A DNA stretch of 64,000 nucleotides from Lingula anatina (taxonomy: Eukaryota; Animalia; Brachiopoda), in assembly GCA_051362555.1 (NCBI GenBank), contig CM120644.1, positions 10,934,567-10,998,566 of the forward strand. The letters run 5' to 3'. The stretch's first letter is position 1; each line of letters starts with the position of its first letter. Shown here piece by piece: positions 8,301 to 45,317 of the stretch. The position numbers and the translations under genes were made by a program. The notes below the pieces were generated by a model, which searched no databases, was not told where the DNA came from, and was given only the letters and a program-made list of their open reading frames with translations.

Positions 8301-9478
8301 TCACTCTGATAAATCAACGAGTGGCCCGTAGGTTTGGTTGTAGATGTTATTTGGATCTTCGGTCAACCAAAACTCAAGAATACTTTCGGCAAACTCGTCA
8401 ATTGAAACAAGGCCATCTCCGTCGGTGTCCATCATATCAAAGTTGTCATTGGAGCATTCAGTTGGGGTGTTAAAACTGTAATAAAAAGCAGCATGTTCTT
8501 TCTTGGATATGAAGCCATCACCATCAATATCCAACACATTGAACTCTGTACAAATAAAAGTTTTGTAAAACTCTTGTCTGAAGTATCTTTCGTTCAGCAC
8601 TGACAGATTGTACTGACGGTGTTCGTCCTCAGAGATGCGTGGTCTATCTCCTGCAAGGAATGCCCAGACTTCCAGGCGACTATTTAAAACGCTCTCAGCA
8701 CTTTCGCCTGAAAATAAAAATTGCCGTCAAATAAACCACGAGTTATCACTCGGAAATTCCCCGGTCGTTTAGCACCTTTGTGCAGGGGAGGACAGATTGA
8801 GGACGATTGCCCTCTTATAAGTTTGTTTAAAATGAATTATTGGGATCCTTTGTAAAGAGTTTAACGTTTTTCCACCACCAAGTTCACTATACTCATCTCC
8901 CCACCCCAATTTCCCAGGCTACGGCTTAGCGGAGGCATTTTGTAAAAGTACGATAATCTAATTATATTCACCACTGAGGTCCAAATAATCTATAAGAGTC
9001 TGTGCAGAAGTCACCATATCTTCCTTGGTAAAGTACCCATCAGCGTTGACATCCAAACGCTGGAAAACCGTTCGGACTTTTCGTCTCCAGTGTTCTGATC
9101 CAGTCAACAGGGGGTAATCGGTTGGTATCTGAAACGTTTTAGAGAGGGCGCATAAAATTGCAGAGGGCAGTTAATTTGTGCATTATAAGGTTACGCGTAA
9201 TACATTGCTACGAAATTGGCATAAAATGAACACAATGGACGTTTATCGCTAAAATGATAGCTTACCTTCTTTAATCTAAGCGGTCGGTTTACAACTCCTC
9301 GGACAGGTTGGGCAAATGTTGGAAACCCGGTGTCAAAACCATTGTAGTTAATCCATGCTTGCGAAGATGTGATAACCCTTCCCAACCTCCTTACCGGCTG
9401 GAAACATATTGCCAATCTGCTCTTTGCAGGCCGCATAATTCTTGCTAGCCCTCGGATCGGTATGGTTATCTTTAACAT
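8301..9478 (-). CDS. EF-hand SCP/coelenterazine-binding-protein-like copy A (subfamily 1) with Arg-rich leader, about 258 aa
   Basis: Exons 9478-9266, 9128-8972, 8707-8301, GT-AG and in frame. Loops DVNADGYFTKED, DIDGDGFISKKE, DTDGDGLVSIDE; ends YGPLVDLSE. Exon 2 begins with ATA rather than ATG. Confidence 0.88.
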
Positions 9479-9957
9479 GGTGAACTTCGAACATGCAGAC
9501 TAACCAGGAGCTTGGAAAATAGTAGTCGCTCAAATCAAACATCAAATCCGGATTGTACAGTGTACGTGTATTTAAATTATGGAAGTATCATAAGAGTTAC
9601 CAGACTGGAAAGAAAATTACAAAGGTGTCTAGTGTAGCGTATTGTCACAGTCCCAACGTGAATAGAATAAAGCTGTGCCAAGGTATAATGTCCCCAGACG
9701 CGGTAAATATTGGCCTGCTGAACTATAGACGTGAAAGCATACTCTCTGCATTACTGAAACCCCATCTGACCCTCATTTCAATTTAAATAGCAAAAAAAAA
9801 GAAATGACTTCGGCCATCTCCTGTTAAAGCTTTAGCATTCCACTGAATGTATCCCCTCCTGCAACTCCTCGCGTGTAAACGGAGGAGCTGAACGGTCATC
9901 AATGAAGACATGCTGGCAACCCGGAAGTACAGCACCTGTAGCCCGCTATGCACTCAG

Positions 9958-11615
9958 AAAGCAAGTAGCCCCGAGGATTCAACCCCCACCCCCGGCGAGT
10001 CGGACACCCAAAGGGATTAAGAAGGTACCTGAACGGTAGCCAAATTACCTACAGGAATCAAAAAATCCCCGCCGCCTCAGACACCCCCCGTCGGACCCGT
10101 ACAACCACCACCAAATTTTCCCAGGACCGTGTACTCGGCCGCCTGGGCGTTGTGGAGCGAATACACGCCCTGCACGGCCGCGGCGTCTTGCGGGGGGAGG
10201 GATACAGATTCGTCACCGTGAGTGTCTATTAATGAAGATGTGGTTCACCGAAAAGGCCGCAGGTGGAGAGTACGGACCACAAGCATGTGCTGGGGCGAGC
10301 GTTCAGTTGTTTCCTTGTAATCAGCAGCAATGTGTTGGTAAGTAACTTCAAATGATGAACATCACGTTTAAGTATGAGTTAAGTGTACAGAAATTCTATG
10401 TATATTACGAGATGGAAACGGCATGTGTTTCGTTAAAATCTTGCCTTCGCATGACAGCCACAGAATGGTCAAACGTAAGCGATTATGCGTATCATGATGA
10501 ACTTTAATGTTTGACAAAAAATAAATACCTATGTTTTTAGATTGTGTCTGAACCTTTTCCAACGGCGTCATCTAATCTGCAGCCATAATTCATGTTACAG
10601 TATTGTTTCTTTACACTGAATTTACACTCTTCGTTTTGACCAAAAAATGAATTTTCCTGGAGTAAACAACAATTTTTCCATACTTACCAATGGTTAATGA
10701 ATCCATTTTTACATTCAAAGTTAGTCCCTTGTTTTTTTGGTAAAATCTCTTAAGAGATTATGACTGAGTACAGCCATCAATGGAGGTCACGTGATCTGAA
10801 GACAAGCTCAGATATCTGAATAATAGCTATAACTGCCGTTTTTGTGGTAAAACAGAATATATTATATTTCTATGAGTTGTTCACGATGTTTTTATTGTGA
10901 AATATAGATATCATACGAAGAGCTATTATCCCCTTAAGTGTTCTTTCCCTGTAGTGGTAGGCGGATGGAGCAAGTGGTGGGGCAAACTATAAAGGAAACG
11001 GTGTTGGCGCCGTCTATGGTGACAATGAACAAGACAACGTGTACAATGGTGGCGATGGTGGCGCCATCTACATTGGGGACAGAGTTAACACCACGGACTC
11101 TCGTGATTTGAAAAAAAGCGGGCAATGCGAATACAAACCAGGGAGTTGATCCTGGCCAGTTTCCACAGCATACCGGTGTCTCCTCTTCATCGTCTTTGGT
11201 ACCCGCCTTGGTTGCTGGCGTCAACACCAGGAACATTTTGTATACTGGACCTAACGGACCCGTCGTTAACAACGTTCAGGTACCCGGTAGCAACGTAGGT
11301 AATGTGTATATCGGGTCTAACGTTCAAGGCAATCAACGCGGCCAGCAGGGTGCTCTTTCAGGTGGGAAATTGGTTGTGAATGACGTTCAACCAGAGTTGG
11401 TGGGAAGGATTGTTAACGTGAATGACGTTCAACCAGGGTTAGTGGGCGGGGATGTTTACGTGAATGACGTTCAACCGGGGTTAGTGGGCGGGGATGTATA
11501 CGACGGTGCTGCCCCAGGTGGACATGGTCAGGGGCGAATGCCTGTTGTTGCCCAATTTCAGCGAAAGCCAATGGATAGGATTTATTACGGCGATGGGGTT
11601 GGAAACACCCGTTAA
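9958..11615 (+). pseudogene. Decayed partial duplicate of the TSP1/low-complexity gene
   Basis: No signal exon. The exon-2 homolog has indels, exon 3 is fused to mid exon 4 by a deletion at about 10978, and only the 3' part (11196-11615) stays open. Confidence 0.8.
10626..10933 (-). mobile_element. TTAA-type (Kolobok-like) MITE copy, one end eroded
   Basis: Reverse-complement match to 30746-31069 and 32605-32941; absent from the paralogous intron at about 4210. Confidence 0.75.
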
Positions 11616-12958
11616 AACAGGGTCGGGTGTGGAAATCTCTGTAATTGAACTTGGAAATAGCGTTAATTGACAGATAGTTACACGGTTCCTTTCAATCGAA
11701 TACTAGTGATTTTCACACTGTTTCTATATAAAATATTTCATTTTTTTTTCAAAGGGCATGTACGTGTATTCAGTTCATTTATCTTTATTTATAATAAACA
11801 AAAGTGAATGGTTCATCATATTTCCACTTCATGCTCATTTGTCATCGACTAATTATATATTTTTAACCTACGCTGTATCAATATTACTGGTCTTCAGCAA
11901 AACGTGGCTCTTTTCAGTATGGTACATGTATGAACAGTTCGGCAACACTCGTGTAGACAGTCACTCATCAGAAACAATGGAGTTTCGTACTTAAACAAAG
12001 GCAAATATTCATAATCTTTGAGCAATTTAAGTCAAGGGAGAAGTTTAGGTATTTATTGGTTCTCGTAGGACACTATGTCTGTTTAGCCGTTTTAATAATT
12101 TTTTGAATACATACTTGATTTCTGTCTTTCATTCTTTAATTTGCAAACTTGCCGTAAATTCTCAAGAAAGTGTAGTTTTTTTTTTTTTTTTTTTTTTTTT
12201 TTTGCAAACTTAACGCTTATTTTTATTTAAATGAGAAGGTTCCTACTAATTTCTTTTTGCTTTTAAATGAAGAGGTTCTTGCAAAAAGTGTTAGGTCCGA
12301 GATTTATTGCAAATTTTGCTAGTTTACATCAGATTTAGGAAATTGCTCAATGGAAGCCAGTATACAAGCATAAACTGTTGATACGTCTTCCTTGAGTAGT
12401 GGGGAGGCCAATGCCCACCCCTGTAACTTTGTGCCTTACTGAAACAGGGAGTTTTCCTTCGAGCAAAATCATATCACGAAACGCGTGTTAAAGATGGACT
12501 ACCAGCAATGCGTAAATAATTGGTGCAGTGTTAACTCATTTTTTTAAATATGAAATGCGGTCTTATCCCATTTACTAAAAATATATATACTGAAGAGCTG
12601 TTAACTATGAATATCAGCTCATATTGTTTACACCAATGTAATTCTTGTGACTCAAATGCAGTTAAGTGTTATTAAGTGTTTCTCGTGTTTCTTTGGATAT
12701 TTTGCGCTGGTATTTAAGTATGAATATATTGATATAGTTGTAAACCTTGCACCACGAAATTGTAGATATCTGCACTGAAAACGGAAGATATGTCTTTTTG
12801 GGGTTAAAATATTATGTCCATTGTGAACCTTTGAAGGCAAATGAGTTATTTCTAATCTCATGTAGTTATTGAGTTCGTACCGTTTCTTTTTGTTATTTTG
12901 AAATTACAAAAAAAGCAAGAAACAGGTTTGTTTGAAATGCAAACCAAATACGTTTCAG

Positions 12959-13905
12959 ATGCCAATAGACTACCCGCTGGTGACTGGTTCTAAGCACTGG
13001 AGACGTAAAATGCTAACTGCATTTAGGGGTTTAGATTCAAATTCCGACGGCCTACTTACTAGAGAAGATTACCTGATGAGTGCTCGACGCATGGCACAAT
13101 ATTTGGATCTTAATGGTAGCTATAACGAGGGCACGCTAGTACTTTCAAGTAAACTGGTGAATATAGAGTATCAGAAGAAGGGTTCGATCCTTACTTTATC
13201 CTCCCTGGCCCCATTCCCAGCCTTCTGAAAATGCATATAATAAAATATTTTGACTGTTTAGTTTTATTTACTGGTAGATAGAACTTGCCTTAGTGGTTAT
13301 ATATATATATGAGGTTACAGAGACTATGCAGGTCTTAATTGTATTAATTTCTCACTGAATATAGGTTATATATATATATATATATATATTTCTGAGGTTA
13401 TAGAGAGGATGTGCGTCTAAACGTTATTCATTTCTCACTGAATAAAAATTTAAATGGGAACAATGAGAACATATGCTTTTTTATCCTAGATAAACAAGCC
13501 GAGGCTATTCTAAACCTGCGCCTGAACATCTGGAAGTCATTAATCATTCCGGGTTCTAAAAATGAAATGGATGGTGTATTGTCGGAGGAGGAATTCTGTA
13601 AGAATCGCATGGAGCGTTTTAACAATCTGCACCTCCGTCAAGAGTTGTTTAATACCGTCATTTCTGTGGAATTCAGCACCATGGATACCAATGGCGACGG
13701 AGCTATATCAAACCAAGAATTTGCTGCATACTGCCACAGCGTCAACATCCCTACTGAATCTTCGAAGAAAATCTTCAGAATCCTGGACACCAACAAAGAT
13801 GGGTTGATTTCTATCGAGGAGTTCGGTCAAGGTCACGCCGATTTCTGGCTGAGTGAAGACCCAAACAGTAAATACAATGAGTTTATTGGACCTTTAGTTG
13901 ACTAG
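12959..13905 (+). CDS. EF-hand SCP/CBP-like copy B (subfamily 2), 190 aa, no leader exon found
   Basis: Exons 12959-13115 (ttcag|ATG, MPIDYPLVTGSKHWRRKM) and 13490-13905. Loops DSNSDGLLTRED, DTNGDGAISNQE, DTNKDGLISIEE; ends HADFWLSEDP...FIGPLVD. Confidence 0.85.
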
Positions 13906-13918
13906 GGATGGTCAATAC

Positions 13919-14075
13919 CAGGACCCAGTTTCACAAAAAAATTTAAGTCAGTCACCTGGCTTAGTTGACTAGGATTTCCATGAGAGTGATGCTACACTGC
14001 TCCTGATAGGGTAAAACTTGCCCATGTGACCATTTACCTTGGTAATTAAGTTCTTTTTTGTGAAACCGGGGCCTG
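13919..14075. mobile_element. Short Harbinger-like MITE
   Basis: Inverted ends caggacccagtttcacaaaaa / tttttgtgaaaccggggcctg; the interior resembles about 37870-37980. Confidence 0.55.
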
Positions 14076-15869
14076 CTGTGACAGCCTGGCAGTTTCCTTG
14101 AACAGTGCGCGTTAGACCTTTATTCAGCAAAATTATAGTTTTCTGGAAACCCGATAAATTTGTCACTATTCACTACGGCAATCCCAGCCGAAGCTGTGGC
14201 GAAAGTTGCAAACTACAAATGTTTAAAGCCGTTTTGGGGCTTAGATATTCTACTTTCTTCCGCTCTGAGTGAAATTCGCCAGTGTTTACTACGAAATTGT
14301 TTCATAATCTAGAAACCAAATGCTTCAAACAAGTTGCTGGATTGTATATCTATGGTTTCAGTTATTATGATGCATCTTGGTGACATAGGGAAAAGTGCTG
14401 AAATGTGCAGAGAAATTAGTTCTGCAATTTTAAAGTCTTTCGTGCCTTCAGTATGCCATCGGGAAATCAATGTTGCTATGGCACAGTCAACGGGCCCTGG
14501 ATTCCAGATGGTTGTTGTTTTGCTGCCTTTACTTCTGCAATTATCGTCTTTTAGCAGGGTGACGGATTTAGCCAAAATACTTGTAGGCCAAAATGTCCAG
14601 ACCTTTGTGACAGCGATGTTATCTCTATTCTTCTCTCCACCACATGTCAAACTTTTCATTATGCATTGTCAAGACACTAACGTATGTTTTTTATGATTTT
14701 TGTTTCAAACTAAATATCAATTGTGTATGTTCAATATGAACAGCTGAATGCTCTGAGTCAAGAAAACCGATTACGGGATTTGATGAACTAATAAGTAAAA
14801 TTAAGAGGCGTTTCTTTCCCAAACAATTGAAATCAATAGAAAGTCAATCACCACTAAATGTAAAACTTCATGCAAAGATGTCTTCAATGCCTTTTTAAAA
14901 GATGAGAAGAGTTCATATATGTAAATATGACGGAGCTTAGTTGTAAAAAGCAGAATGATCACAAAAAAATGTGTTCTCTTTTTGGCAACCAGTGAAGTTG
15001 TTGAAGATAAATGTGAGGTGACTATAACCGGATGTGGGTAAAAGGGCACTATTCCCCTCGCAGATTGAATAAAATGGTATATTCCCAGAGAAAATACGAT
15101 TTAAAGTGAATATATCTGACACCTGGGAAGATTAGTAATTGTATTTCCTACTACCCTGAGCAGTTTGAAGGTACACTTACTAGGAATTTCCTGGTTTACT
15201 CCAGCAGTTCTTGCAGATCTAAAAGTGTTAAGAACAATGTAAGAAATAGTCAGTATTTGGTAGTATTTAGAATTATCCCGCTGTTAAACCACTTAAACTA
15301 GAATACTAGATTTTAATGTCTCATCAACGTTCAGCGCCATGCATACTGTTTGTATTTAAAAGTAATGTCATTCAATAGCAGACAGACAGTTTAAATGCAA
15401 ATGGCAGTGAACTTTTGAAACAGACGTGTCTCTTCGCCATGTATTTTCTTGCAAATGAGATAGTAACCTACATAACAAAGAAACATCTTACACGTCGACC
15501 AAGGAAAACATATGGTGTAAACAGACTTATTCCGTATGCACATTATTATCAAATATCTTTCACCTTATGTGACCTGCTATAGCGACAGCGGGTCACTCTT
15601 TCTTTTTTTTTATCTCGTATGGCATCTGGTGTCATTGTGTGACACTCTCTGAGTAGGGCATTAGTTATATCCTGATCCGAAATTCTTAAAATGATATGCC
15701 AGTCGAGTGTTGTTCCGATAACAAACTAAAATCAACATAGCCACTAAACTAAAGAAACTTGCGAAACTCATGGGCGTACTTTGTTTCCCGAATATAAACT
15801 TCTTCTGTTATCTTTGCAGAAAACTGTGACATCTAAATAGTACCGTACGAATTAAGACTCAAATGACAA

Positions 15870-18800
15870 CCAGACGACAGAATGGAAGGTTGCAAAACCG
15901 CCAATCAACCGTACAAAACAAAGCACATATTTAGAGATAACTATGACTAACAAAATTTCGTCTTTCTGTGAAAATACAAACGTAAGCTGAATTTAAATCA
16001 GAAAAAAATGTATCGACGTGATCAAAACACCTTGAAATTGCTCGCAAACAGCTCTACACTGATATCTATTTTCTCTCGAACTTGTTTCATTTGTTCATGC
16101 CGTGTCATGCTAATAAAAGCTCTATGGAAGTCTGGTCAGAAAATACGTTGACAAACGAGCATGCATCTCATTTTTTGCGAGTAAAAATGTAATAATGTCA
16201 AAATGTCAAAATGTCGAATGTCATAAACTCCAAATGTCCCTAAGTTATTACTTTTGGGTCCGTTAACTTCCTATTCCTTGTCAGTCACCTTTCCACAAAC
16301 AATAACGCGCATATACACGGTTAAACTATTTTTTGTGGAAATGGTTGGAAAAGATAACAGGAGCACCTTATAGACTATCACGCGAACTGAAACATTATAA
16401 ACATGTTTTGATGATCGTTTCTTGGTGTCAAGAGATAAAACCGCATTTTGTATTGTAAAACTTTTAGCTTACACACTGCGGTTGACCTCATACATATTCT
16501 CTTAATCAGCCATACACACACTGAGAAATACGTGACAACATTCATAGAAAAATCTGAGTCCTTCAACCGAGTAATACGAAAGCTCATACATTAAAAGGAT
16601 TAAAGCAGCAATGACATAAAAGATATGTATTTCTTCCTTTTTATGTGTCACATAACTTAAGCAGAATTTGTATCACAAAAAATGTAAGCCTTGAAATTAT
16701 GAGAAACAGCTCTGCACTTATATTCAATATTTGGCTCAGTGCCATGTCATACTGTAATGTCTAGATATAGAGGCACATTACCCATTACATCACTCAAATT
16801 GAAACATTATACAACATTGGTCAAAAAGGTTGTCCCACCCCCATTTCCATGTACTTTTACTTACAAATGATCACATCACAGCTGTGAACTGTTAGAAATA
16901 GTGCTTTTTATTACGGATACCGTGTCTAACATGATTAATGGTTTAAAAAATACAAAATAGTGGTGAAAATATACACATTTTATGCCATTTAGTAAAATTT
17001 ATAAGAGGTACCCCCTCAAATCAACTGTTTCACTGTGACTTCTACAGATGTAAAGAAATGTCTATAAAATTGAAAAGACGCCATCAAATGTCACCAAATT
17101 CACACACAATTAGCATTAGGGTGTGCTCGTAAAAGGTCACCTGCCTACCAGCGTGTGCGTCTACCGCGTACTGCAATTATCTCCTGTAGACGGCGCGACA
17201 AGCCTTCAACACGGGTTACAATTCTGTTTTGTGGGATATTGTCCCATTCTTCTTAAACAAGTTGGGGGAGTTGGTCCACGTTTTTATGGGGTTGGTTCTC
17301 CTTTGCATTGCACACTCCAATTCATGTCACAGTTGATTAGTAAGTTAAATATCAGGGCTCAAAGATGGTGGTTCCATCCTTAGACCATTGTGTTTCTTCA
17401 ACAAACACTTGCCAGGCGAGAGGTGTGAGCAAGTGTGCAGTCATGATAAAGCCTGAAGTAAACCCCAAAGTCAGTTCTTGAAAATGGAATGAGATATCAG
17501 CTGAGAATGCTACGTTCAGTGATCCCACAGGCACCTGAACCTGGCCATCCATCACTGGAAGGAAGTCGATTTTGATGCAGAATCAAATTATTTCTTGTAT
17601 CCCATCGATGGTCAAAGAGAGTCCATAGACATGTTAAAAAATGCCTCTCGGAAGGGTGTGTGTAGGGTAATATCGCCTGAGGTGTTAGATCAATCCGCAT
17701 TTGGAGAACATTCCAAGCCCATGGTATTAGTACATTGTTCCTTTTGGAACAAAACGTAACAGGGGCATTTTAATGTAACATTCTCAACAGAAATCTCACT
17801 CCATTTGCAAGAGGTGACTTCAGGGATACTACTGGCTTCGTTATGACAACGCACTTGCTCACAGCTCTCGTCTGGCAAACGATTTGTTGCAGAAACACAG
17901 GGCTCTGAGGATGGGACAACCGTCTTTGAGTCCTGATATTAATCCTACTGAGCACCTGTGGCATAAATTGGAATGTGCATTGCAGAGGAGAACCAATTCC
18001 TAAATAATCTTGACCAATTCCGCCACGCTCTTTAGGATGAATGGGACAATATCCCACATAACAGAATTGTTACCCATGTTGAAGGCTTGTCGCGCCATCT
18101 ACAGGAGATAATTGCAGTACGCGGTAGACGCACACGCTGTTAGGAGCGTGATCTTTAACGAGCACACCCTAATGCTAATTGTGTGGGTATTTGGTGACTT
18201 TTCATGGTGTCTTTTCAATTTTATAGACATTTCTTTACATCTTTAGAAGTCACAGTGAAACAGTCGATTTGCGGGGGTACCTCTTATAAATCATACTAAA
18301 TGGTATAAAATGTGTATATTTTCACCACTATTTTGTATTTTTAAACCATTAATCATGTTAGAAACGGTTTCCGTAATAAAAAGCACTATTTCTAACAGTT
18401 CACAGCTGTGAGGTGATCATTTGTAAATAAAAGTACATGGAAATGGGGGTGGGACAACCTTTTTGACCAATGTTTTGTAATCGTTTTTCGGCGTCAAGAA
18501 ATAAGACGGCATTTAATATCGTAAAACTTCGAGCTAACGCACATGTGATAAGCCTTATTCATATACATGTTATACTTGTATTTTAATTAAAATTAATAAA
18601 TAGGGGTTAGTATGGAACGCTTTTTTAATTTTTACATTTGCCGTAATTTTGTCTGATCTGTCACGTGATTGACGTGTGTCAAAATAGCTTCACCATGAAG
18701 GCAATTGTTACCGTATGTTTTCTTTGAAATCGACTTTGTTTGTATTTAACTGTTCATTTTTAGTGGTTATTAAATCATTGTTATATTCAGTCAACCAAAG

Positions 18801-19570
18801 GACCGAGGAGCTCATCGTATTTGCCGTTTGGGTCTTCCCCCAGCCAAAAATCGAGATGCGCCTCACCGAACTCTTTAACGGAGATGTAGCCATTTTTGTT
18901 GGTGTCCATGACATCGAAGATCTTCTTCGAGTGCTCCGTGGGGATGTTTAAACTATGGAAATAAGCAGCGTGTTCCTTGGGAGAAATCTTTCCATCACCA
19001 TCTGTATCCATGGTGTTGAATTCCACGGAAATGACTCGAGAGAACAGCTCTTGTCGGGCTTTCATGTCGTTGAAAGCCAGGATACGATTCTGTATAAACG
19101 CATCGAATGATACCTCTTCGGCCATTTCACCTTTTGGGTTCTTTTCGATCGCTGCCTTCCAGATATGCAAGCGTAGTTTTACAATAGCTTCAGTTTGGTC
19201 CTCTGAAAAAGTAAAGGATTATTTTTGAAAAAGAGAGAGAGAGAGAGAATGAAACATTTGGCATTTATGGCGCCTTAATTGGCGACAATTTATTCTTTTA
19301 TACTAAAGAGAATATAACAATAGAATTGGAATTCAAAGTTGCAATTTTATGAAAAACTACCATTTAGACCCAGATATTGTGCTGCACGCTTCCCACTCAA
19401 AATCATGTCTTCGCTGGAAAGACGTCCATCATTGTTAGAATCTAAGGCCCTGAATACGGTGCGCATTTTGCGTTTCCAGTGTTCCGAGCCGGTCAGCGGT
19501 GGATACTCAACGGGCATCTGAAATACGTTTATTTGTACAAAATTCGACTTAATTCGAATATGGAAACTTA
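15870..19570. repeat. Segmental duplication carrying the body of copy C (paralog about 25612-27620 carries copy E)
   Basis: Direct colinear similarity, interrupted here by the Tc1 derivative. Confidence 0.85.
16812..18477. mobile_element. Palindromic (fold-back) Tc1/mariner derivative
   Basis: Ends ta|caacattggtcaaaaaggttgtcccacccc and ggggtgggacaacctttttgaccaatgttttg|ta. Both arms carry a decayed transposase 3' end (DNALAH...SPDINPTEHLWH...EWDNIP...LQEIIAVRGRRTRC). Absent in the paralog at about 26550. Confidence 0.85.
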
Positions 19571-20174
19571 TTTTTTTCAAAATTGAAAATAAATGTTCTT
19601 TAAAGCAACCTGTCTTGTCTTGTCTTGTCTTGTCTTGTCTTGTCAGTCTACTGAAACAAGTCACGTGGTTTGAAAGAACACCCTGGAGTAACAAGATATT
19701 CTGGATTTATGCACCGAGATATGTTAAATGATCGACGCCCTTTAGTAATGTTCCTTTAACCAACATTCTTTCTACACTGTCATTTTCTTCTTTGATTACT
19801 GGTAGCAACATAGTTTTCTCAGCATTCATATTCAAACCATACGCCTCATTCCTTTTTTCGCTGCTTCAGTATACTGTTTCAGACTTTAGATTACACGGTT
19901 AATAAATTCCTGGTTTAATATGAAAAATATAGATATGCATTAAAAAATTATAACATACTAGTACCTTTTTTAATCTCAAAGGTCGGTTCATCACCTCTCG
20001 CTTGGGTTGGGAAAATCTCGGAAATCCCAGGCCAAGACCGTTGCGGGTAATCCATGTTTGTGAAGAGTAATTGATCTGCAGTCTCCTCACTGGTTGGAAA
20101 CGTATTTTTAACCTGGTTTCTGTTGGTTGTAAGACTCTGGTTATTCCTCGGAAAGCTTCGATAATCCTAGACAT
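18787..20174 (-). CDS. EF-hand SCP/CBP-like copy C (subfamily 2) with leader, about 260 aa
   Basis: Exons 20174-19965, 19517-19361, 19202-18787, in frame. Loops DSNNDGRLSSED, DTDGDGKISPKE, DTNKNGYISVKE; ends HLDFWLGEDP...LLGPLVD. Confidence 0.88.
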
Positions 20175-20905
20175 GGTGTTTGTGGAGAAATGAGACGTGC
20201 TAGAGAATTTAAAATGCACAGGTACCATCCACCCCAATGAAGCCCGGGATTTTCCTCTATGTAAATGTTGAGGCTGTCATAGGGACCATTCCCACAAATA
20301 AATGGATCGATCTATCTCCCTGGGGAGTCTCACTAAATTGCTATCAACGTAACCGGCTTAAATGTCTGTCACGCCTAGTAAAGCTGTTAAGGGGTAATTA
20401 GCTGATTCGGTAGGCGTGACAGACATTTAATCCTCTTGAGCTGATAGCAATTTAGCGTGAACCCCAAGGGAGTTAGGTCGATCCAGATGGATTGATTTAA
20501 GTATGGGAACCCAGTCATAAAAATTACTAGACTGAAAAATTTTTAAGTAACTAAATGAGGGGAGGGCTGAACAACCTTAGCACCTTGCCTTCACTGGAAA
20601 TGGAATAGAACTTTTTAAGGGTAAGATGATCCGAAACATACTGAACAGAAGTGTCCTAAAGATTTGAAAACATAATCTCTTTTTAAATGAAACCCAAAGT
20701 CAAGCTTCATTTAAAATCTAACAGTGGCTTGAACGTGATATGTCTGGAAAGAATATGAAACATGTGTTAGGGATTAGTTATCATAGCGTATTACTTTATA
20801 TTAGACTTTCTGCGTGACTGGAATAATGCCTTATAAACTCACTGGGGACATTTTTATCAATTTCGTCCGAGGTGAGAACAAACACTGCATGTGAATAAAT
20901 AAATA
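19600..20905. repeat. Inverted duplicate of about 42615-43903 (upstream region, leader exon, part of intron 1)
   Basis: Reverse-complement colinear match, including near-identical leaders MSRII(E/I)AFRGI. Confidence 0.85.
20283..20515. mobile_element. About 220-bp internally palindromic MITE (family also at about 21205-21415, 30438-30692, 55384-55607, 55612-55826)
   Basis: Shared cattccca...gatcgatcta...ggggagtctcacta...cgcctacta...ggtcgatc...tggga motifs; absent from the inverted paralog at about 42990. Confidence 0.75.
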
Positions 20906-21204
20906 AACTAGCAAAATTAAGAATATCTAATGCACACATGTACATGCTGATATATGCTGATATACTGAACGTTGCTTTATCTACGAATACGTAATCTACG
21001 AATACGTTTATCTCAGGCATTCTTAACGATTAACCTCTACCAGGGCCGCAGTAATTGTGGACATTTTTTGTTGAGGCGACTCTGTTACGTTTGACCATGA
21101 GGAAACAATTAACTCTGCCCGCGCGCGGAAGGTTTTGTACTCGCTCTGCAGGAGCTTCGCTTCGCGTCGATGCGATAACTGCTCGTTACGCAACCCGTCT
21201 AAGG

Positions 21205-21415
21205 GCGCATTCCCATAGATTTTAGTTGATTTAACACCATGGGGAGTCTCACTAGATTACTGTCAGATAATCCGGCTTAAATGTCCGTCCCGCCTACTAC
21301 AAGCTGTAAGGGGGTAATTAACTTTCGTGCCCGCTCGGCTGACAGCTATTTAGCGTGAACCCCCAGGGAGTTAGGTCGATCTAGTTGGATCGATCTAATC
21401 TCTGGCAATGGGGTC
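21205..21415. mobile_element. MITE, same family as 20283-20515
   Basis: Near-identical to 55612-55826. Confidence 0.75.
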
Positions 21416-21985
21416 TAAGGCTCCGCTGTCTGCTGAAACTAGCCACGTGATTAAAGTCAGAGCATTTACCCGTCTTGATTGCTGTTAAGCGTACTTAGTC
21501 TGGACCTGCATATTGGCAGTGCCTGAGCAGTTATGCAAACAATTACCAGCCATGTAATCAGCCTTGAGATTCCATTACAGGGTGACATCAGTCTAAAATG
21601 GCTGTCTATTTATCTAGAGACATATCTGTGAATATCTGTGAAAAATCAATCTGTGGCCCTGGTAGAGGGTAACTGCTGCCCAGGTATCAAGTGACTGCTT
21701 AAAATTCGCCCAGCTCTTTCGCCTGAAAAGAACGAAATATCTTAAAATGAACCACGGGCTCACACACGGGACCTACCGATATTTGGTCAATATTAGTGGT
21801 TGTATAATAAGAATTCAAAAGTTGCACAAAGCATGATAGAATGGAGGGGCAGAAATAGAGAGAGAGAGTGTGAGAATGTCGAACAAAAGGCATAGGATCG
21901 ACTAGTTCGCACAAGTATATCTTGTTGAGCAGCTGAAGCAATGCTCAAACATCAAATTAATGCAAAAAATTCTAATTGTATTCAC

Positions 21986-22950: not shown

Positions 22951-23858
22951 GGTGAACACCGAGAAAGCTGACGTCCATGTACTAGAGATTTCAAAATGAA
23001 CCATCTGCTCAAATCTTACCCAAATCTTATCTTTATTCAACGTTTGGGGGTGTCATAAAAGTTACCAGACTGGAAAGAAAAAATTGAAAGAAATAAGAAC
23101 TGAACAACCTTAATATTGCGTAATACTTTAAAATGGATTCAATAGACGGGTGCCTGCTGGAGCGTGCACTCATGACCTTTATACATAAGATTGAGGGCAG
23201 ATATTGTGTGCAAAGTGAATAAAAATGCAAACATCCAGTCTACGCATGTAACACATGCATTTTAATTCTTTCTCTCTCTCTCACACACACACAAACACAC
23301 ACACGACGCCTTCACACCTGGGCAGCAGTCGCTGGAGACAGAACACGTCTTAATTAACCAGGAGGAACACTGTCGAGACCTTCTGGCATTCCTGAATGAA
23401 GAACTTTCATGTAGAAAACGAACAAAATTAATCTGTTATTTCCATGTTAATTAATATGGCACGAGGGGTTTTAATTGTGGAGTCTTCTTCCCTTTTATTT
23501 ATGACGCGTTATCGTCCTTTGGGATCCGTGACACGGGGGTATATGCGATAGGAAAAGAACAACAAAGTCCTGATCTTTCTTTAATCCAGGCAAGCGGCTT
23601 TTATTGGATCACGGATGAGAGGTACAACTGAGTACGCCTTCTGAATTAAACTTTCGTTCCCTGTCGATCGGTTCTGCTCAGATAGTACAGGTACTTCTTA
23701 CGCGACGATATTGCTTCTAAAGGAACAATCTAACGAATAATTGTCTAAGCGCCTAAGTGAACAAGTGAATAAGTGTACATGTATAAGTGTCCAAGTGTAT
23801 AAGTGTCTAAGTGTCCAGCCCAAAGTGCGGGCCTCACTTTTATCTTCCTAGAATGCTG

Positions 23859-33025: not shown

Positions 33026-33652
33026 ATGTCCAGGATCACCATACCTATCCGGAGATTAGCAACAAGAATGCGGCCTGTAGAAAGCAGATTAGCAATACCT
33101 TTTCAACCAGAAAGGAGATTGGGGAAGACCAATTATTCATCGCCGTCCTGGATTTGTCGTAATGGTTTTGAGCTGAGATTTCCAAGATTTTCTCAACCCT
33201 CGCGAGGACTTGTAAACATACCATTGAGAGTACAGAAGGTATTAATATGCTATTGTTATATTGATTTTAATGTTAAAACATTAAGCTACGCAACCTGCAG
33301 ATAGTAGATTGTGTGCCTTTTAAACTTGATAACTTATAGGAAAACAATTTCAGATGCCTGCTGAGTATCCATTGCTGACCGGCTCAGAACACTGGAAACG
33401 AAAAATGCGATCAGTATTCATGTCATTAGACCCAAACAAAGATGGAATCCTTTCTCGCAAAGACATGGTATTGAGTGCGAAGCGATCTATACAACATTTG
33501 AATCTTAAAGGTAAATATTCAGATAATTACCCCTGCTATAATTTACAATTACCAACGGTATGCTGTAGATTTGTATGTTCCAGATAATTGTTATCCCTTT
33601 ATACCTACAATGTCGATTTCAATGCCAATTGCTTCCCTCCCCCCTCCTCCCA

Positions 33653-33695
<43 letters not shown>

Positions 33696-34099
33696 CACAT
33701 ACACACAATTTTCATTTTTTTTCTTCAGAAGACAAACTAAAAGATGTGTTAAAACTGCGTCTGTACATCTGGGAGACATCGATGGGTAAGAATGCAAAAG
33801 GCGAAATTGCAGAAGAGATATCGTTTGAAGAATTTGTTCAGAACCGTATCTTAGCCTTTAACGACATAAAAGCCAGGCAAGAGATTATGTCGCATATTAT
33901 TTCCGTGGAATTCAACACTATGGATACAGATGGTGATGGTCTGATTTCTTCCAAGGAACACGCTATTTTTTGCGAAAGTTTAAACATCCCGCCAGATCAA
34001 TCAAAGAAGATCTTTGCTCTCATTGACAGTAACAAAGATGGCCTCATCACCATGGAAGAGTTTGGACAATCCCTTTGTGATTTTTGGCTAGGGGAATAA
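33026..34099 (+). CDS. EF-hand SCP/CBP-like copy F (subfamily 2) with leader, C-terminally truncated (about 246 aa; possible young pseudogene)
   Basis: Exons 33026-33238, 33354-33510, 33729-34099. An inserted TAA follows FWLGE; the ancestral tail (DPNRKNNEFVGP, a second TAA, original TGA at 34145-34147) is still readable. Confidence 0.75.
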
Positions 34100-36320: not shown

Positions 36321-38994
36321 ATGTTTAGGATCATCAGACCTTTACAAGGACTAGCAGGAGTCATGCGACCTGCAGAAAGAAGACTAGCAATACTTTTCCA
36401 ACCAGTTAGGAGATTTGGAAAGATGTTGAACTCTTCACAAACATGGATTGCCCACAGTGGTCTTGGCCTGGGGTTACCGAGAATTTCCCAACCCAAGCGA
36501 GGGATGGTAAACCGACCGTTGAGATTAAAGAAGGTAGGGTAAGTTTATCATCTTAATGATGGTATCAGGACAATTTCCCCCCGGACAATTCCCCCCCGGA
36601 CTATTCCCCCCGGACAATTCCCCCCAAGGACAATCCCCCCCCCCCGGACGATTCCCCCCGAAAGAAGATATATTTATATACAAAATATAAAGTAAAGAGT
36701 ACAAAGTTCAAATCTTTTCATCCATTTTATGAATATATCTCAGTTTGATGATGCAACTCGAGGATAGATAATATTCATTAAATTATTTTCATGTAGTACA
36801 AGTACAGAAAATTTTAGTGATATAAGTACAGAACATTTTGTTTAAAATCTGATCAAAGTACATCTCTAGTTAAGGTGGGATAAACAGATGATCTCACTCA
36901 TCCAGGTGACTCTTTGATAAATTAACTGTTACTTTTTTAAAAGTTAAAAAATTGCTTAATTACTGTCCCCCCCCCCCCCTTGATTAAGTCTTGAATCAAG
37001 GTGCATCTCTAGGGAGAGGTGGGGTAAACAGATTTTCTCGCTTATCCAGGCATCCATTTGATTATTTGTCACTTTTAATTGCTTGACCACTACCCACCTA
37101 CTCACTACCCACCACAATAAAATATTCATAAAATATCTGTTTACCTGTTTATCTGTTTACCCAAACTTTACCTGAAGGATAGGTGGTTATACTTTGATTA
37201 GATGTTTAATAAAACTTTCAGTACTAGTACTAAATGAAAAAGGACTTTGTTATAAAATAATTTTTGTTCATGATGATGTTGCATTATCACACTAAAATAT
37301 TAATAAAATGGATGACATGTTTTAAACTTTACACTTTTTACATTATTTTTCTGTATAAATAGATATTTCTTGGGGGGGGGGAATCGTCCGGGGGGGGGGT
37401 TGTCTAGGGGGGGATTGTCCGGGGGGAATAGTTCGGGGGGGGAATTGTCCGGGGGGAATTGTCCTAGAATCCTTAATGATAAGTCCCATTTTCTTTTTCT
37501 TAATATGATACCAGTTTCTTAGCGTTGAATGAACGTATACTTATTAAGGTATTATCACGTCCATTTGCCTATGCCTGCTCTATGTCTAACATCTATGTCT
37601 AACGTTTCAGATGCCCACCGATTACCCACTGCTGACTGGATCAGAACACTGGAGACGAAAAGCTCGAACGGTTTTCCAGCGTATGGATGCCAACGCCGAT
37701 GGGTACCTTACCAAAGAAGACTATGTGTCTACTGCTCAGACCCTAATAGATCACCTGAGCCTTACTGGTGAGTACAATTAGATTACAGTGTATGAGGTTG
37801 ATGTTTGAGCAGAGCTGTAGGCTTTTAAAACTGTTTGGGGGTGAGCAGCAGTTTCAAAAAAAAAATTAGGTCAGTACCCACGATTAGTCGACTTGGAATT
37901 CCATGATGTTACACTGCTCCTGATAGGATAAGATGTGCCCATATGACCATGTAACCTTGGTAGTTAAGTTCTTAGCCAGAGAACTTAACTTAAAGACAGT
38001 CTCAGCGCGTTAAACCCTTAAAATAGCACGAAAATGAATTTTCCTGGAAATCTCACCAATTTCCCCATCATGACCAAGGTATATCCTATCCAAAACCGTT
38101 CAGAAAATGAAGCTACCTAATACCGTTTTTAAGTTCCATTAAATAATAAAAGACGACTCGTCTTAAATACTCAGCTACCACCTCACAGTACGGCTTCAGA
38201 ACGCGCAATTTCTCGCTAAGTCTCGCGGTTTACTATGAATGAAGTACTACGGCTGAGACCCGGATGTTACTATTTGGCGCCAAAACAGCAAACGTGGCTC
38301 AGACGCGCGTCAAGTCTGAAGAGGAGAGCGACAAAAGGGGACAAAAGAAAATAGCCACTCCAGTTCGAAAGATACGAAAGAAAATTAGAGACAGACGAAG
38401 AAGCACTCAGACTGTGTATGTTGGGAGGGAGGTGGGGCGGTGGAGGACACTTAAAGCTGAGTTAGGACTAACATACGAGGCAATGGCGAAACTACTCCTC
38501 GACACGTGAGTATGCGCTTCACAGGTCTCAAGTGTATCTGATTATCATATTATCCTGTTCACAATAAATGACAATATTTGTGCTCATACAAAGTTGGTTA
38601 CGTGTATAAGAGCGTTTTGGGCTTTACGTTTTCTGTTTTTGATCGGTACATGTACCGAAAAGATGGACAGGCGGCACTTACATGTCTGACAAGTTTCGCT
38701 GTGTAGTCGTGACGTCTATCTCATTCTGACTGAAGCCTGCTGTGATTGGTCGTAAGCGTGGGAAAATCGAGGTCGTGACCTTGAGCCGGAAGTACTTCTG
38801 GCTGTGCTCCGAAATCATGATAAATAGTTTTCGTTTTCTAATTCTTTATTCTAGTTGTCTTAACAGGACTTTTGTGACTCAGACTTATTAATATAATAAT
38901 AAACAATCTCACAAAATACAAATCTGATCAAAGTTTTACATAGAACCTGCTTCTATACATTAATCTAACCCACTGAGACTGTCTTTAAGAACTT

Positions 38995-39033
<39 letters not shown>

Positions 39034-39635
39034 GGGGGGGGGGGGGCTAGAACTTAGCTGTATATTAACGCTTTATTAAGATCCCAAAATGACATTTCTC
39101 TTGTGGCGTGTGGCGTTCGTGTGAAACTTTCCAAAACTATTTATACTGCCAAAAATATTGGCATAATATTTTGAAGTCCAGTATGTGAACTCGTGGTTAT
39201 TTGGAACACATTTAATCCTTTTTAGGGGAAAGAGCTGAGCGCATTTTAAAGGGACGCCTTGAACTCTGGGCAGCAATTGCTGGAGACAAAACACGTCTCA
39301 ATGCAGAAGAACACTGGAGGAACAATCTGGCATTATTGAATGGAGTGTTTTTCCGACAAGAGATGTACCGCACTTTAATTTGTACGGAGTTCAGTACAAT
39401 GGATATTGATGGTGATGGGTTCATATCCAAGGACGAACATGCTGCTTATTATTACAGTCTTGACATTCCAACTGAATGCTCCAAGGACGACTTTGATATA
39501 ATGGACACCAACGGAGATGGCCTCGTTTCAATTGACGAGTTTGCCGAAAGTTTTCTCGGGTTTTGGTTGACCGAAGATTCAAATAACATCTACAACCAAA
39601 ACTTCGGCCACTTGGTGATTGATCAGTGCGATTAA
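36321..39635 (+). CDS. EF-hand SCP/CBP-like copy G (subfamily 1) with leader, about 259 aa
   Basis: Exons 36321-36533, 37611-37767, 39226-39635, in frame, three EF loops intact. A 1-nt deletion near 39606 changes the GPLxD end to GHLVIDQCD. Confidence 0.82.
36561..37471. mobile_element. Non-autonomous Mutator-like element in intron 1 of copy G
   Basis: 9-bp TSD cttaatgat (36552-36560 and 37472-37480); long TIRs built of ggacaattccccccc subrepeats. Confidence 0.85.
37994..38984 (+). mobile_element. Kolobok-like non-autonomous element in intron 2 of copy G
   Basis: TTAA flanks; TIR agacagtctcag / ctgagactgtct; short basic ORF at 38264-38509 (DRRRSTQTVYVG...RWRTLKAELGL...MAKLLLD). Confidence 0.75.
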
Positions 39636-40320: not shown

Positions 40321-40325
<5 letters not shown>

Positions 40326-40386
<61 letters not shown>

Positions 40387-40867: not shown

Positions 40868-40898
<31 letters not shown>

Positions 40899-40929
40899 TT
40901 TCTATAGTATTTGCCAAGTGATTTTTAAA

Positions 40930-41260: not shown

Positions 41261-41804
41261 AATCAAATGCAGTTTGATGTTTTATAAGTAATACATTATT
41301 TTGGAAACGGAGTTGCAAACTTTTATGGGAAATGTACTCCATTTGATTTTCCCGCCAAAACGGATTTTCCAGGGAAATAAACCTTTTTCTCGTACTCACG
41401 AATTAAATATCTATCCCTCTCTGCACTTGGATTGGAACCTTAATTAAATTCAAAAAGGTCGATTTAGTTTAAAATGACTGTCCAATCAGCGACGATCTTC
41501 TTATATTCTACTACTGAATGTAAATGTCAACATCAAGTACGCTTGAAAATTTTTAAGGGGGGTAAAATAGTTTTTAAGGTGTATGTTAGGTTTTATGAAA
41601 AGCAGTAGATGGCGAACGTAAGCATTTGGGGAATTTTCAAACCCACGGGGTGAACATTTAAACTCTGCTTTATTTTACTTCCATGCAACGCATGACAATA
41701 ACGTGGCTAGGGTCGGGTGGATTCTATTTCAAGACATCAGAATTTAAATAAAGGTTAAATCCTGGTTTATGAAGAGCAGGCGATGCTTAAAGTTTCAAAT
41801 CTAT

Positions 41805-41953
41805 AGTCTGGGATAATCAAACCTTTACAAGGACTAGTAGGAGTAATTGAACCTGTAAAAAGCAGATTGGCAACACGTTTCCAACCAGTAAGGAGATTTG
41901 GAATGATGTTGAACTCTTCACAAACATAGATTACCCACAATGGTCTTGGCTTG
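41805..41953 (+). pseudogene. Orphan truncated leader exon (duplicate of the copy G leader)
   Basis: IIKPLQGLVGVIEPVKSRLATRFQPVRRFGMMLNSSQT then TAG; no ATG. The upstream 41340-41800 duplicates 35795-36290. Confidence 0.75.
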
Positions 41954-43097
41954 TATATATTGTCTTATACTACTAGCTGCCTTTTCCACACCCCAGTTAG
42001 TGCTGCTTCAATAAAATTAAAACGATTTATGGGTACATGAGTAATGAAAAAATAAGATTTTTTTTTCTGGAAAAAAAAAGGCAGGAATATGTCGTGTCCG
42101 ACAAAGATATCTTATGAGGTCATATGATGTGGTTGTGGTCCAATAGTACTCCAGTAATGTGGCGGCTTCTTTGTGTAACGACAAGGTAAAGAAATTATAC
42201 AATTATAAGTAATTTAAGTCTGCGTGCATCGACCATAGATAACAGATTATCATTAAAGAGATGAGAATTGAGACCTTGGGAGAGGGGATAGGAGACGGAG
42301 GAGAGGAGATTGGGAGCGACAAAGTACGGAGCACAGTAGTTTCGGAGAGTTAGGAGTTGGAGAGTTCACTAAGAATATGTAGCTACCTAGCGTCGACGAA
42401 TAAATCGTTTAACTGGCCATTATGCGGACTTGGGTTTTCTTTGCGCGACCTTGCGTAAATCTGACACGAACCGTGGAATCCTTAGATTGCGTTATCCATT
42501 TAAGTAAGACGAAAACGTAGCCCACGCTTGAATTAAGCGTACAAAAATTATAAGTTAAGGACATTCATTACAGCATGCACATATGTCCATTATATTTTCT
42601 TAATTTTGCCAGTTCATTTATTCACATGCAATATTTGTTCTCACCTCAGACGAAACTGATAAAAATGTCCCCAGTGAGTTTATTAGGCACTGCTCTATTC
42701 CAGTCACGCAGAAAGTATAATATAAAGTAATACGAAATGATAAATAATCCCTAACACACGTTTCAATATTCTTTCCAGACATATCACGTTCAAGCCAGTG
42801 TTAAATTTTAAATGAAGGTCGACTCCGGGTTTCATTTGAAAAGAAATTATGTTTTCGAATCTTCAGTACACTTCTGTTCAGTATGTTTCGGATCATCCTA
42901 CCCGTATAAAGCTCTATTCCATCCACAGTGAAGTCAAGGTGCTAAGGTTGTTAAGACCTCATTTATTTAAGACCTCGTTTATTAACTTTTATAACAGCCT
43001 CAACATTTACATAGAGGAAAATTCCGGGCTTCATTGGGGTGGATAGAACCCTGTGCATTTTAAATTCTCTTGCACGTCTCATTTCTCCACAAACACC

Positions 43098-45317
43098 ATG
43101 TCTAGGATTATCATAGCTTTCCGAGGAATAGCCAGAGTCTTACAACCAACGGAAAGCAGATTGGCAATACGTTTCCAACCAGTGAGGAGATTGCAGATTA
43201 TTAACTCTTCACAAACATGGATTACCCGCAATGGTCTTGGCCTGGGATTTCCAAGATTTTCCCAACCCAAGCGAGAGGTGATGAACCGACCCTTGAGATT
43301 AAAAAAGGTACTAGTATGTTATTATTTTTAAAACTACATATATATAGTTTTCATATTAAACCAGGGATTTATTTACCGTGTAATCTCAAATCTGAAACAG
43401 TATATATATTGAAGCAGCGAAAGAAAGGAATGAGGCGTATGATTTGAATACGAATGCTGAGAAAACTAGAGTGCTACCAGTAATCAAAGAAGAAAATGAC
43501 AGTGTGGAAAGAACGTTGGTCAACGGAACGGTACTGAAGGGCGTCAATCATTTAACATATCTCAGTGCATAAATCCAGAACGAAGGGGATGCTAGGAAGG
43601 TCAGAAAGAGACTGGCAATGGGCCTTCAAATTCTACAGAAATTGAAGAAGCTCTGGTGAGGCCAGGATAAACAGACAAAGCTCAGGATCCTCAAATCCTG
43701 CGTTTTTCCTTTAGTCACATATACGGTCTGGGTTCTGAGAAAGTCGGAAGAGGCAAGAATAACTGCCTATGGCTGGACACTTAATTGATCTCCTGTGACA
43801 ACAAAATAGGCCCTTATGAATAGCTTGTTACTCCAGGGTGTTCTTTCAAACCACGTGACTTGTTTCAGTAGACTGACAAGACAATACGAAACAGGTTGCT
43901 TTAACCATGGACATAATGAGACGAGCATTTATTACATCGGCGCGAAGACCAGCTCCCACTGAACGACTGCAGAGCGTGTATAATGCCATCTGCACTCGTG
44001 CAGGTTTAATTGCTTCCATCTAGCCAAATGTTACAGGGTCGCCTCATGGAAAATGTCCGCATGGTAATAACAGCGGTCCTGGTAGAGGGTATACTTTCTT
44101 GGTGCACACCATGTTCACCAGGAAGGAACATACTAGTATGTTATACTTTAAAAAATACATAATGCAGTATTTATATTACAACCAGGATTTATTAACCATG
44201 CAATTTCAAGATTATGCTTGCATTTCCTTACTTATTTCTGGCATTTTACAATTTTTCAGATGCCAACTGATTACCCACTGTTGACAGGATCAGACCACTG
44301 GAGACGTAAAATTCGAACGGTTTTCCATCGTTTGGATGCCAACGCCGATGGGTACCTCACCAAGGATGACTTTGTGTCCACTGCTCAGACCCTTATAGAT
44401 TATGTGGGCCTCACTGGTGAATATGCTTCTATACCATGCATGTTAAAAGATCGTGCTAGAAAACATATGGTGTTCAGTGCAATCCTTCAGTGCAATGCAC
44501 TTGTCAATGTTTTGGGAAGTATATGCATGTACATCCCCTGCTGTTGTGTGTGCACATACAGAAAGATATGATAGAACATCAAAAAGCGGAGACTGTTCTA
44601 CTGCCTTTAACTGACAGCCAATTTACTCGCGGAACTCTCTCTTTCTCTCAGCCCCCCCCCCTCCCTCCCCCCCCCCCCCCCCCCCCCCCCCCAACAAGCC
44701 TTCTCTGTCTCCAGCGTTCGTGGCGTTGGGAGTTTTCCAATCCTATTTATGCCACTATAAATGTTGGCAAGCACAAGTCACGTCAGTCTGTCATATCTTG
44801 CACACACCCCTTTCACTCACCCCCCCCCCTTTTCTTTCACCTCACCAACTTCCTTCACTAAAAAAACCTGAGGGATAATTAAAAACTTTATATTTTAAGA
44901 CAAATGTTATTCTTTTTAGGCGAAAGAGCTGAGCGCATGTTAAATGGAAGAATTGACCTATGGGCATATCTTGCTGGAGACAAAACGCGTATCACAGAGG
45001 ATGAATACATTCGTGGAATTATGTCATACATGAACGAAAAACACTTTCGAGAAGAGCTGCACCACGCTATGATTTGTACAGAGTTCAATACGATTGATAT
45101 CGATGGTGATGGGTTCATATCCAAGGATGAACATGCTGCTTATTATTACAGTCTTAACATCCCAACTGAATGCTCCAAGGACGACTTTGATATAATGGAC
45201 ACCAACGGGGATGGTCTTGTTTCAGTTGACGAGTTTGCCGAAAGTTATCTCGAGTTTTGGTTGACCGAAGATCCAAATAATATCTACAACCAAAACTATG
45301 GGCCTCTCCTTGATTGA
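43098..45317 (+). CDS. EF-hand SCP/CBP-like copy I (subfamily 1) with leader, about 254 aa
   Basis: Exons 43098-43307, 44260-44416, 44920-45317. Loops DANADGYLTKDD, DIDGDGFISKDE, DTNGDGLVSVDE; ends NYGPLLD. Confidence 0.9.
43581..43770 (+). mobile_element. RTE-type LINE fragment in intron 1 of copy I
   Basis: Decayed KVRKRLAMG...LKKLW...KLRILKSCVFPLVTY...WVLRKSEEARITA; absent from the paralogous intron at about 19700. Confidence 0.65.

Follow-up and report, generated by a model that had tools for sequence, protein, structure and literature searches.

A tandem family of SCP-fold EF-hand genes in Lingula anatina with a leader exon predicted to address mitochondria

Sarcoplasmic calcium-binding proteins (SCPs) are regarded as cytosolic. 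Their fold is shared by the coelenterazine-binding protein (CBP) of Renilla muelleri (2HPS/2HQ8), by the hydrozoan photoproteins, and by calexcitin, juvenile hormone diol kinase (JHDK), okadaic-acid-binding protein and calerythrin, and none of the latter four is known as a matrix protein. A mitochondria-targeted precedent is clytin2 of Clytia hemisphaerica, which, in the part of the study covered here, carries a predicted presequence of 30–50 amino acids (aa) and co-localizes to egg mitochondria (PMC4043110). EF-hand Ca2+ sensing is also found at mitochondria, for MICU and LETM1 according to the covered sections of a review (PMC7889021), and the same sections hold that mitochondria, unlike the endoplasmic reticulum, are without specialized Ca-binding buffer proteins, matrix Ca2+ being buffered by phosphate. 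Here, we analyzed 64,000 nucleotides of the brachiopod Lingula anatina (assembly GCA_051362555.1, contig CM120644.1, positions 10,934,567 to 10,998,566; hereafter “the window”), in which SCP-fold EF-hand genes stand in tandem and five of them open with a separate, strongly basic leader exon. We predict from sequence that the leader-bearing proteins are quite likely targeted to mitochondria, and favor, with less assurance, the reading that the tandem genes encode Ca2+/Mg2+ buffers of the mitochondrial matrix with a cleavable presequence exon, a reading in which we infer both the location and the Ca2+ binding.

Translated searches and splice-site reading identified seven SCP-fold EF-hand genes (A, B, C, E, F, G and I), one pseudogene (D) and two orphan leaders in the window. 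The leader exon, in phase 0, runs from an ATG to an AAG|GT donor with a TTTCAG acceptor downstream, and is found in A (9266–9478, minus strand, 213 bp, 71 codons), C (19965–20174, minus strand, 210 bp, 70 codons), F (33026–33238, plus strand, 213 bp, 71 codons), G (36321–36533, plus strand, 213 bp, 71 codons) and I (43098–43307, plus strand, 210 bp, 70 codons). These are the five copies to which an earlier reading of the locus from its letters (the sequence-only reading) had assigned a stop-free 210- or 213-bp first exon. Each gene then has a 157-bp exon 2, a phase-1 intron and exon 3, and this second intron thus splits the body, a feature absent from the earlier account. The body length of about 185–190 aa given there fits A (187 aa), C (190 aa), G (188 aa) and I (184 aa), but not F, whose body has only 174 aa.

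The leader is coding and under purifying selection. Its frame 0 is free of stops in 5/5 copies, compared with 6–7 stops in frame +1 and 1–3 in frame +2, and the leader ATG has an A at −3 in all five. In a tree-based codon model, the ratio of non-synonymous to synonymous substitution rates (dN/dS) was 0.48 for the leader, significantly below 1 (likelihood-ratio statistic 12.9, p=3e-4) and <0.5 with significance in both halves, and 0.36 for the body; pairwise leader values ranged from 0.27 to 0.82 without a transition weight and from 0.36 to 1.01 with it. In neutral simulations, with branch lengths scaled to neutrality, all five leaders were stop-free in 0/5000 replicates. Paralogous non-coding flanks (eight alignments) showed 41 of 50 indels with lengths not divisible by three, from which ~31 frameshifts would be predicted across the tree of leaders; there are none, and the leaders differ in length by one codon only. 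Where the body is not intact, the leader is broken as well (3/3 cases), and W, P and G columns of the leader are invariant. Since exon 2 of copy A opens with ATA and the first body Met is residue 38, past loop I, this copy needs its leader for a whole protein. The leader as an untranslated region (UTR) or as a neutral open reading frame (ORF) is thus ruled out by the dN/dS, the stop-free frame and the simulations, and the coding selection postulated by the sequence-only reading is borne out.

The composition of the leader likewise agrees with what had been read from copy A, where 14 R/K and a single D occur in 71 aa. Overall, the five window leaders hold 14–16 R/K and 1–3 D/E, for a net charge of +12 to +14, and have no secretory signal-peptide core, because their best 11-residue Kyte–Doolittle mean reaches only 0.47–1.75. 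As a known domain the leader went unrecognized, with no Pfam family for 2/2 leaders, no usable feature match in the Atlas and structural TM-scores ≤0.36. Four RefSeq models of 254–264 aa, retrieved with a leader profile, fuse leader and body and are named SCP-like or kinase-like, none of them mitochondrial; hence, the exon is annotated already but uninterpreted. The leader of F is 94% identical to that of XP_013398786.1, and the leader of G 100% identical to that of XP_013398759.2. In the literature covered, no description of orthologs with this leader was found.

Evidence for splicing came from RNA reads of seven of nine runs under the same species label, surveyed at 93% identity over 8000–27900 and at 82% over 18600–20285, with F, G and I lying outside these regions. 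At 93%, clear reads on the genes were seen in run X7 only; X4 had a trace on E, and X1 and X2 almost none. Run X5 gave three reads. At 82%, all three exons of copy C, the leader among them, were covered in 3/4 runs, with a leader depth of ~50–66 near the 3′ end in 3/4 runs and zero depth in the intron 1 bins 19569–19910, and the joint of intron 2 (19202/19361, CT..AC) was seen as modelled in 15, 12 and 16 reads. Loose read ends fell at the exact leader donor, 19965, in 46, 32 and 43 reads and ran on as an exon-2 start, ATG-Pro-Ile-Asp-Tyr-Pro-Leu-Val-Thr-Gly, which by eye resembled exon 2 of B at 27–28 of 30 nt in two runs. These reads show that a member of the family splices its leader in frame to exon 2, but they are not the junction of C itself, so that the leader-to-exon-2 splicing proposed earlier stands for related copies and RefSeq models but not for C's own junction. 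Two further features of the RNA data concern the surroundings of the genes: reads of three runs join opposite strands at 18680–18767, a short inversion difference between RNA source and window in the 3′ UTR of a C/E-type gene, and interspersed repeats at 10626–10937 and 21209–21671 reach hundreds-fold depth in polyA RNA.

Next, we evaluated leaders across the family, with counts drawn from RefSeq L. anatina proteins. A profile search, word-based and able to miss animal relatives, gave 106 matches, of which 34 were L. anatina clusters on contigs of 11 different sizes; the remaining 72 scored ≤102 bits and were mostly bacterial or unnamed. The family is thus expanded in Lingula, which agrees with the expanded cluster noted by the sequence-only reading. 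SCP-like clusters of flatworm, arthropod and mollusc are among the neighbors in the Atlas. We retrieved 38 L. anatina family proteins, cluster members included, and 23 of them carry a basic, acid-poor leader of 25–90 aa (criterion: ≥24 aa, net charge ≥+4); the other 15 comprise four with 20-aa stubs, three with acidic or chimeric starts, four leaderless and four partial proteins. The three acidic or chimeric N termini (P0001, P0013 and P0025) look mispredicted, P0013 opening with a D-type leader read in frame +1, and four other RefSeq models begin at an internal Met of a 74-aa leader type.

Without two near-duplicates, 21 non-redundant leaders remained. The segment ahead of their predicted cut holds 12.3% R and 2.6% D+E, compared with 18.4% D+E in the bodies, and the first 25 residues include 0–1 acidic residues in 21/21. 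An Arg stands at −13/−12 relative to the invariant body Pro in 17/21. The strict form of the site, R-x-[FLY]-[STA], occurs in 11/21 leaders, compared with a mean of 0.18 (maximum 3 in 5000) among shuffles, and an R-x-F|T/S site in 7/7 short leaders (25–31 aa). In the covered part of the relevant study, such an R-3 pattern corresponds to a cut by the mitochondrial processing peptidase (MPP) followed by trimming by Icp55 (PMC3673636). AlphaFold models have a confidence (pLDDT) <50 over residues 1–63 of P0005, the RefSeq match of G, with a predicted mature start at 62–63, and over residues 1–17 of P0031, with a predicted mature start at 16; the last 8–10 leader residues are ordered with the body. 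A classical K/R nuclear localization signal (NLS) pattern was absent from 20/21 leaders, and a Cys/Gly lipidation start was lacking. A profile of seven long leaders matched two of 1.84 billion representatives, one a Lingula model and the other a 589-aa repeat protein (E 9e-5, 28 positions) taken as a chance match; by this profile, the long leader is found only in Lingula. In a family tree built without P0002 and P0035-37, the short-leader clade, one chimeric model included, has a support of 100/97 and falls outside the rest with bacterial-type outgroups.

Several observations weigh against a cleavable mitochondrial presequence in these genes. The strict R-3 motif occurs in 0/5 window leaders: the Arg is kept in 5/5, but the sequences read RGVV, REVM, RGLV, RGMV and REVM, i.e., their site is degenerate. 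The N-terminal hydrophobic moment, 0.66–0.85 per residue, exceeds that of a leader's own shuffles (p<0.05) in only 1/5. Family-wide, the Arg is absent in 4/21 leaders, the shuffle control ignores the kinship of the leaders, the loose motif was derived from the same data, and the disorder boundary of the models may simply mirror the onset of alignment conservation. Leader dN/dS lies near that of the body (0.48 vs 0.36), with the invariant W, P and G columns, and such a constraint is above expectation for a simple presequence. The root that would make short leaders ancestral is not firm (89/98 for the Lingula clade, with distant bacterial-type outgroups). In the RNA data, the leader and exon 2 of copy A had no reads in four runs at 93%, the 19517/19965 joint of C's own intron 1 was absent among the rows listed, and the reads are not a full match to C or to E, having the letter of E at 12 of 28 variant positions. 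Overall, the presequence proposed by the sequence-only reading is best regarded as a prediction, which gains from the R-3 site of short-leader paralogs and from disorder ending there in two models but loses from the amphipathicity (1/5) and the degenerate sites in the window.

The bodies come closest to Nereis SCP by the ranks of profile score and structural Z, the measures of relation to named SCPs used here. Structural alignment of the AlphaFold model of P0005 to 2scp gave Z 23.4 (rmsd 1.9, 171 residues aligned), and Nereis SCP (23.4) ranked ahead of JHDK (21.6), CBP (21.2) and obelin (16.4). Profile comparison likewise placed Nereis SCP (E 1.8e-24) before Renilla CBP (1.5e-22), calexcitin (8e-16) and aequorin (3e-12), and in Foldseek CBP led by E-value but SCP by TM-score; identities were 22–27%. 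The EF-loop pattern matched sites I, III and IV and left site II unmatched in 7/7 bodies. A C-terminal GPL[VI] is found in A, B, C, E and I, with GHLV in G, and is missing in the shortened F. The SCP-like fold and the pattern of three loops with a dead loop II, as read at the outset, are thus supported, and the GPLVD-like end holds for 6/7 bodies but not for F. Matches to XopAW and TcdB (NCBIfam, Pfam) were EF-loop noise far under the cut-off, and horizontal transfer from bacteria is not supported, because the bacterial matches score no higher than Nereis SCP.

Compared with these relatives, the Lingula proteins combine familiar and distinct features. The SCP of Nereis (Hediste) diversicolor (2SCP/1Q80), the best match by profile and structure, shares the three loops (I, III and IV), the Asp12 of loop I and an FW/FF...GPLV end; however, it is only 22–23% identical, and its solved chain of 174 aa is leaderless and aligns from model residue 82, whereas the Lingula proteins have an extra PxxYPxxxG segment and the basic leader and form at least 34 sequence clusters. 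Renilla CBP has the same fold, the three-loop pattern and a GDLVD end (its Z of 21.2 being that of the Ca-loaded form), but its solved chain has no presequence and the likeness is one of fold only; Lingula is not known to be luminous. Calexcitin, JHDK, okadaic-acid-binding protein and calerythrin have the same SCP-like fold (Z 12.9–21.6) at lower sequence scores (47–62 bits vs 90). Photoproteins have the fold in common, at a structural Z of 16 vs 23 for SCP, and the mitochondria-targeted clytin2, which the sequence-only reading had aptly cited as a precedent, is, in the covered part of its description, one gene in which the leader does not form an exon of its own, whereas the Lingula leader is an exon across the family. 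MICU1/2, LETM1 and SCaMC share EF-hand Ca2+ sensing at mitochondria but are intermembrane-space regulators or membrane transporters. Among the photoprotein catalytic residues given in the covered part of a published list (PMC10095345), His22 (obelin numbering) is absent in 7/7 bodies (aligned residues V, M, M, M, M, A and I), His175 is present in 3/7 (B, C and E) and Trp179 in 7/7, and Tyr190 lies past the end of the alignment shown. Since His22 is absent throughout, these copies are not photoproteins, and that branch of the sequence-only reading is not supported.

Under the matrix-buffer reading, the precursor would be imported into the matrix via TOM/TIM23, its leader predicted to lack folded structure as far as an R-x-hydrophobic site that lies ~11 residues from the end of the exon. 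MPP would cut two residues past the Arg, with trimming by one residue in R-x-F|T/S copies, and leave a mature protein of ~195–200 aa that would keep a short linker, basic and packed against the body. Loops III and IV would bind Ca2+, loop I, which like that of Nereis SCP has Asp12, would be a mixed Ca/Mg site, and the acidic mature protein would damp free matrix calcium. The long leader probably arose by elaboration of a 25–31-aa presequence kept in the sister clade, and copies without a leader (B and E in the window) or starting at the exon-2 ATG would be cytosolic.

A different function in the same compartment is conceivable, namely that the mitochondrial proteins, instead of buffering in bulk, carry or sense a partner protein or a small hydrophobic molecule under Ca2+ gating, as do CBP, okadaic-acid-binding protein and JHDK. 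Members of the fold that bind ligands indeed come next in rank (7pjd, Z 21.6; 2hq8, Z 21.2; CBP, E 1.5e-22), and the divergence of the bodies, with 42–50% identity between classes and a dN/dS of 0.36, fits ligand diversification better than dosage. We nonetheless consider such carriers unlikely, as Nereis SCP comes first by both profile and structural Z, loops III and IV are intact in 7/7, no ligand is indicated and His22 is missing from every body.

The other two alternatives bear on the leader. It may stay on the protein as a basic tail with affinity for acidic membranes, nucleic acid, polyphosphate or the acidic body of the same protein, a reading that would accommodate a constraint near that of the body, the opposite net charges of bodies (−17 to −21) and leaders (+13 to +14) in A, G and I, and the degenerate cleavage site of the window copies. 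However, paralog leaders vary in length from 25 to ~75 aa yet keep their composition and the R-x-F|T/S site, residues 1–63 are not docked on the body in models, and lipidation starts and, in 20/21, NLS clusters are lacking, which together make a tail markedly improbable. Still more doubtful, and in our view very improbable, is an ordinary cytosolic SCP as the main product, started at the exon-2 ATG or from an alternative first exon, with the leader form minor. An ATG opens exon 2 in 6/8 window copies, B and E are leaderless in the window as are four RefSeq models, and reads at the C/E-type exon-2 start gave no joint to the C leader among the rows listed; yet exon 2 opens with ATA in A and D, at this Met position many paralogs carry T, A, D or N, or lack a residue, the leader ATG has its A at −3 in 5/5, and the leader is under purifying selection.

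Leaders have also been exchanged between paralogs. The leaders of C and I are 92% identical at the nucleotide level on bodies that are 56% identical, and the shared promoter-leader-intron block extends over 19699–20281 vs 42990–43580 (91%) and 20562–20949 vs 42571–42960 (88%). Leader and body trees conflict, with log-likelihood losses of 36 and 169 when swapped. Because of this mismatch in identity and the conflict of the trees, we conclude that a promoter-plus-leader module was swapped between paralogs.

The individual copies differ in completeness. On the minus strand, copy A continues from its leader with exon 2 (8972–9128; helix A and EF loop I) and exon 3 (8301–8707; dead site II, loops III and IV and the GPLVD end), the latter with low RNA depth in one run and with L. 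anatina RefSeq models as its closest proteins (4/4). Copy C has exon 2 at 19361–19517 and an RNA-covered exon 3 at 18787–19202, both on the minus strand. On the plus strand, G comprises exon 2 at 37611–37767 and exon 3 at 39226–39635, and I exon 2 at 44260–44416 and exon 3 at 44920–45317. Copy F (plus strand, exon 2 at 33354–33510, exon 3 at 33732–34099) ends early, its stop (34097–34099) following directly after EF loop IV, without the last ~16 residues and the GPLVD end; RefSeq XP_013398786.1 ends at the same place, so that this stop is not a one-off error. Body identity to L. anatina RefSeq models is 97–98% for G, F, C and E, 90% for I, 70% for A and 66% for B.

The two leaderless genes are B (plus strand, exon 2 at 12959–13115, exon 3 at 13490–13905) and E (minus strand, exon 2 at 27416–27572, exon 3 at 26846–27261), and a search for a diverged leader upstream of either found none in the window (best E 0.013 over 17 residues, without a donor). 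The RefSeq match of E, P0011 (97%), is also leaderless. B and E might encode cytosolic forms, or their leader may be lost in the present haplotype; in the case of B, this haplotype alone may have lost it, or the reads joining a leader to a B-like exon 2 may stem from a paralog. Between A and B, where a B leader would sit, lies a decayed duplicate (9960–12325) of a thrombospondin-repeat gene at 3568–7396 (72–83% nucleotide identity). Pseudogene D (21984–22950, minus strand) has a leader (22950–22727) with an 11-nt insertion and a stop in exon 2, and lacks an intact exon 3. One orphan leader (29819–30030, plus strand) is an inverted copy of the D leader with a 4-nt insertion and a lost donor, and the other, H (41804–41950, plus strand), is a copy of the G leader that has lost its ATG and 3′ end and has an internal stop. 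In C, F, D and the 29819 copy, a further Met lies in frame 18 codons ahead of the conserved leader ATG (20228, 32972 region); A, G and I lack it, and RefSeq uses it for F.

Lingula is among the few invertebrates with a calcium-phosphate shell. That dozens of dedicated matrix Ca2+ buffers enable its shell-forming cells to accumulate calcium and phosphate in their mitochondria while keeping precipitation in check is a speculation we regard as quite unlikely; if true, the family would offer a genetic handle on the long-standing idea of mitochondria as a source of mineral for apatite formation. In the covered sections of the review cited at the outset (PMC7889021), mitochondrial granules are given a role in mineralization, and an SCP-type buffer family with presequences would be a counter-example to the view, taken in the same sections, of mitochondria without Ca-binding buffers. 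The locus further presents a putative targeting exon that was swapped between tandem paralogs, lost from some and probably lengthened in others, and the family could supply natural matrix-targeted Ca2+ buffers as tools.

As far as our searches reach, the family is undescribed, its members being SCP variants that are probably addressed to mitochondria. No report pairing SCP with mitochondrial targeting or a transit peptide was found in the literature covered, subscription journals being outside it. Within the portions covered, the Lingula genome paper leaves the family unmentioned, with 0 occurrences of “sarcoplasmic”, “EF-hand” or “mitochondri” in the main text and 0 of “sarcoplasmic” in the supplement (PMC4595640), and a 2026 shell-proteome paper has 0 occurrences of “sarcoplasmic” in its text and two supplement rows, both for another species; six family accessions are absent from the covered part of that supplement (PMC13425148). 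An intracellular protein would likewise be absent from a shell proteome, and a link of the family to the shell is thus conjectural. Annelid Scp2 is mentioned in foregut muscle only, in the part of that study covered (PMC9934868).

Elsewhere in the window, a multi-exon gene on the minus strand (60713–63123), with a 288-codon open stretch, has no Pfam, NCBIfam or PDB match; it may resemble bacterial carbohydrate-binding family 9-like proteins. The plus strand carries a single-exon rhodopsin-family G protein-coupled receptor at 47475–48746 (7tm_1, E 7e-32) and a THAP-domain ORF at 53594–54055 (E 3e-17).

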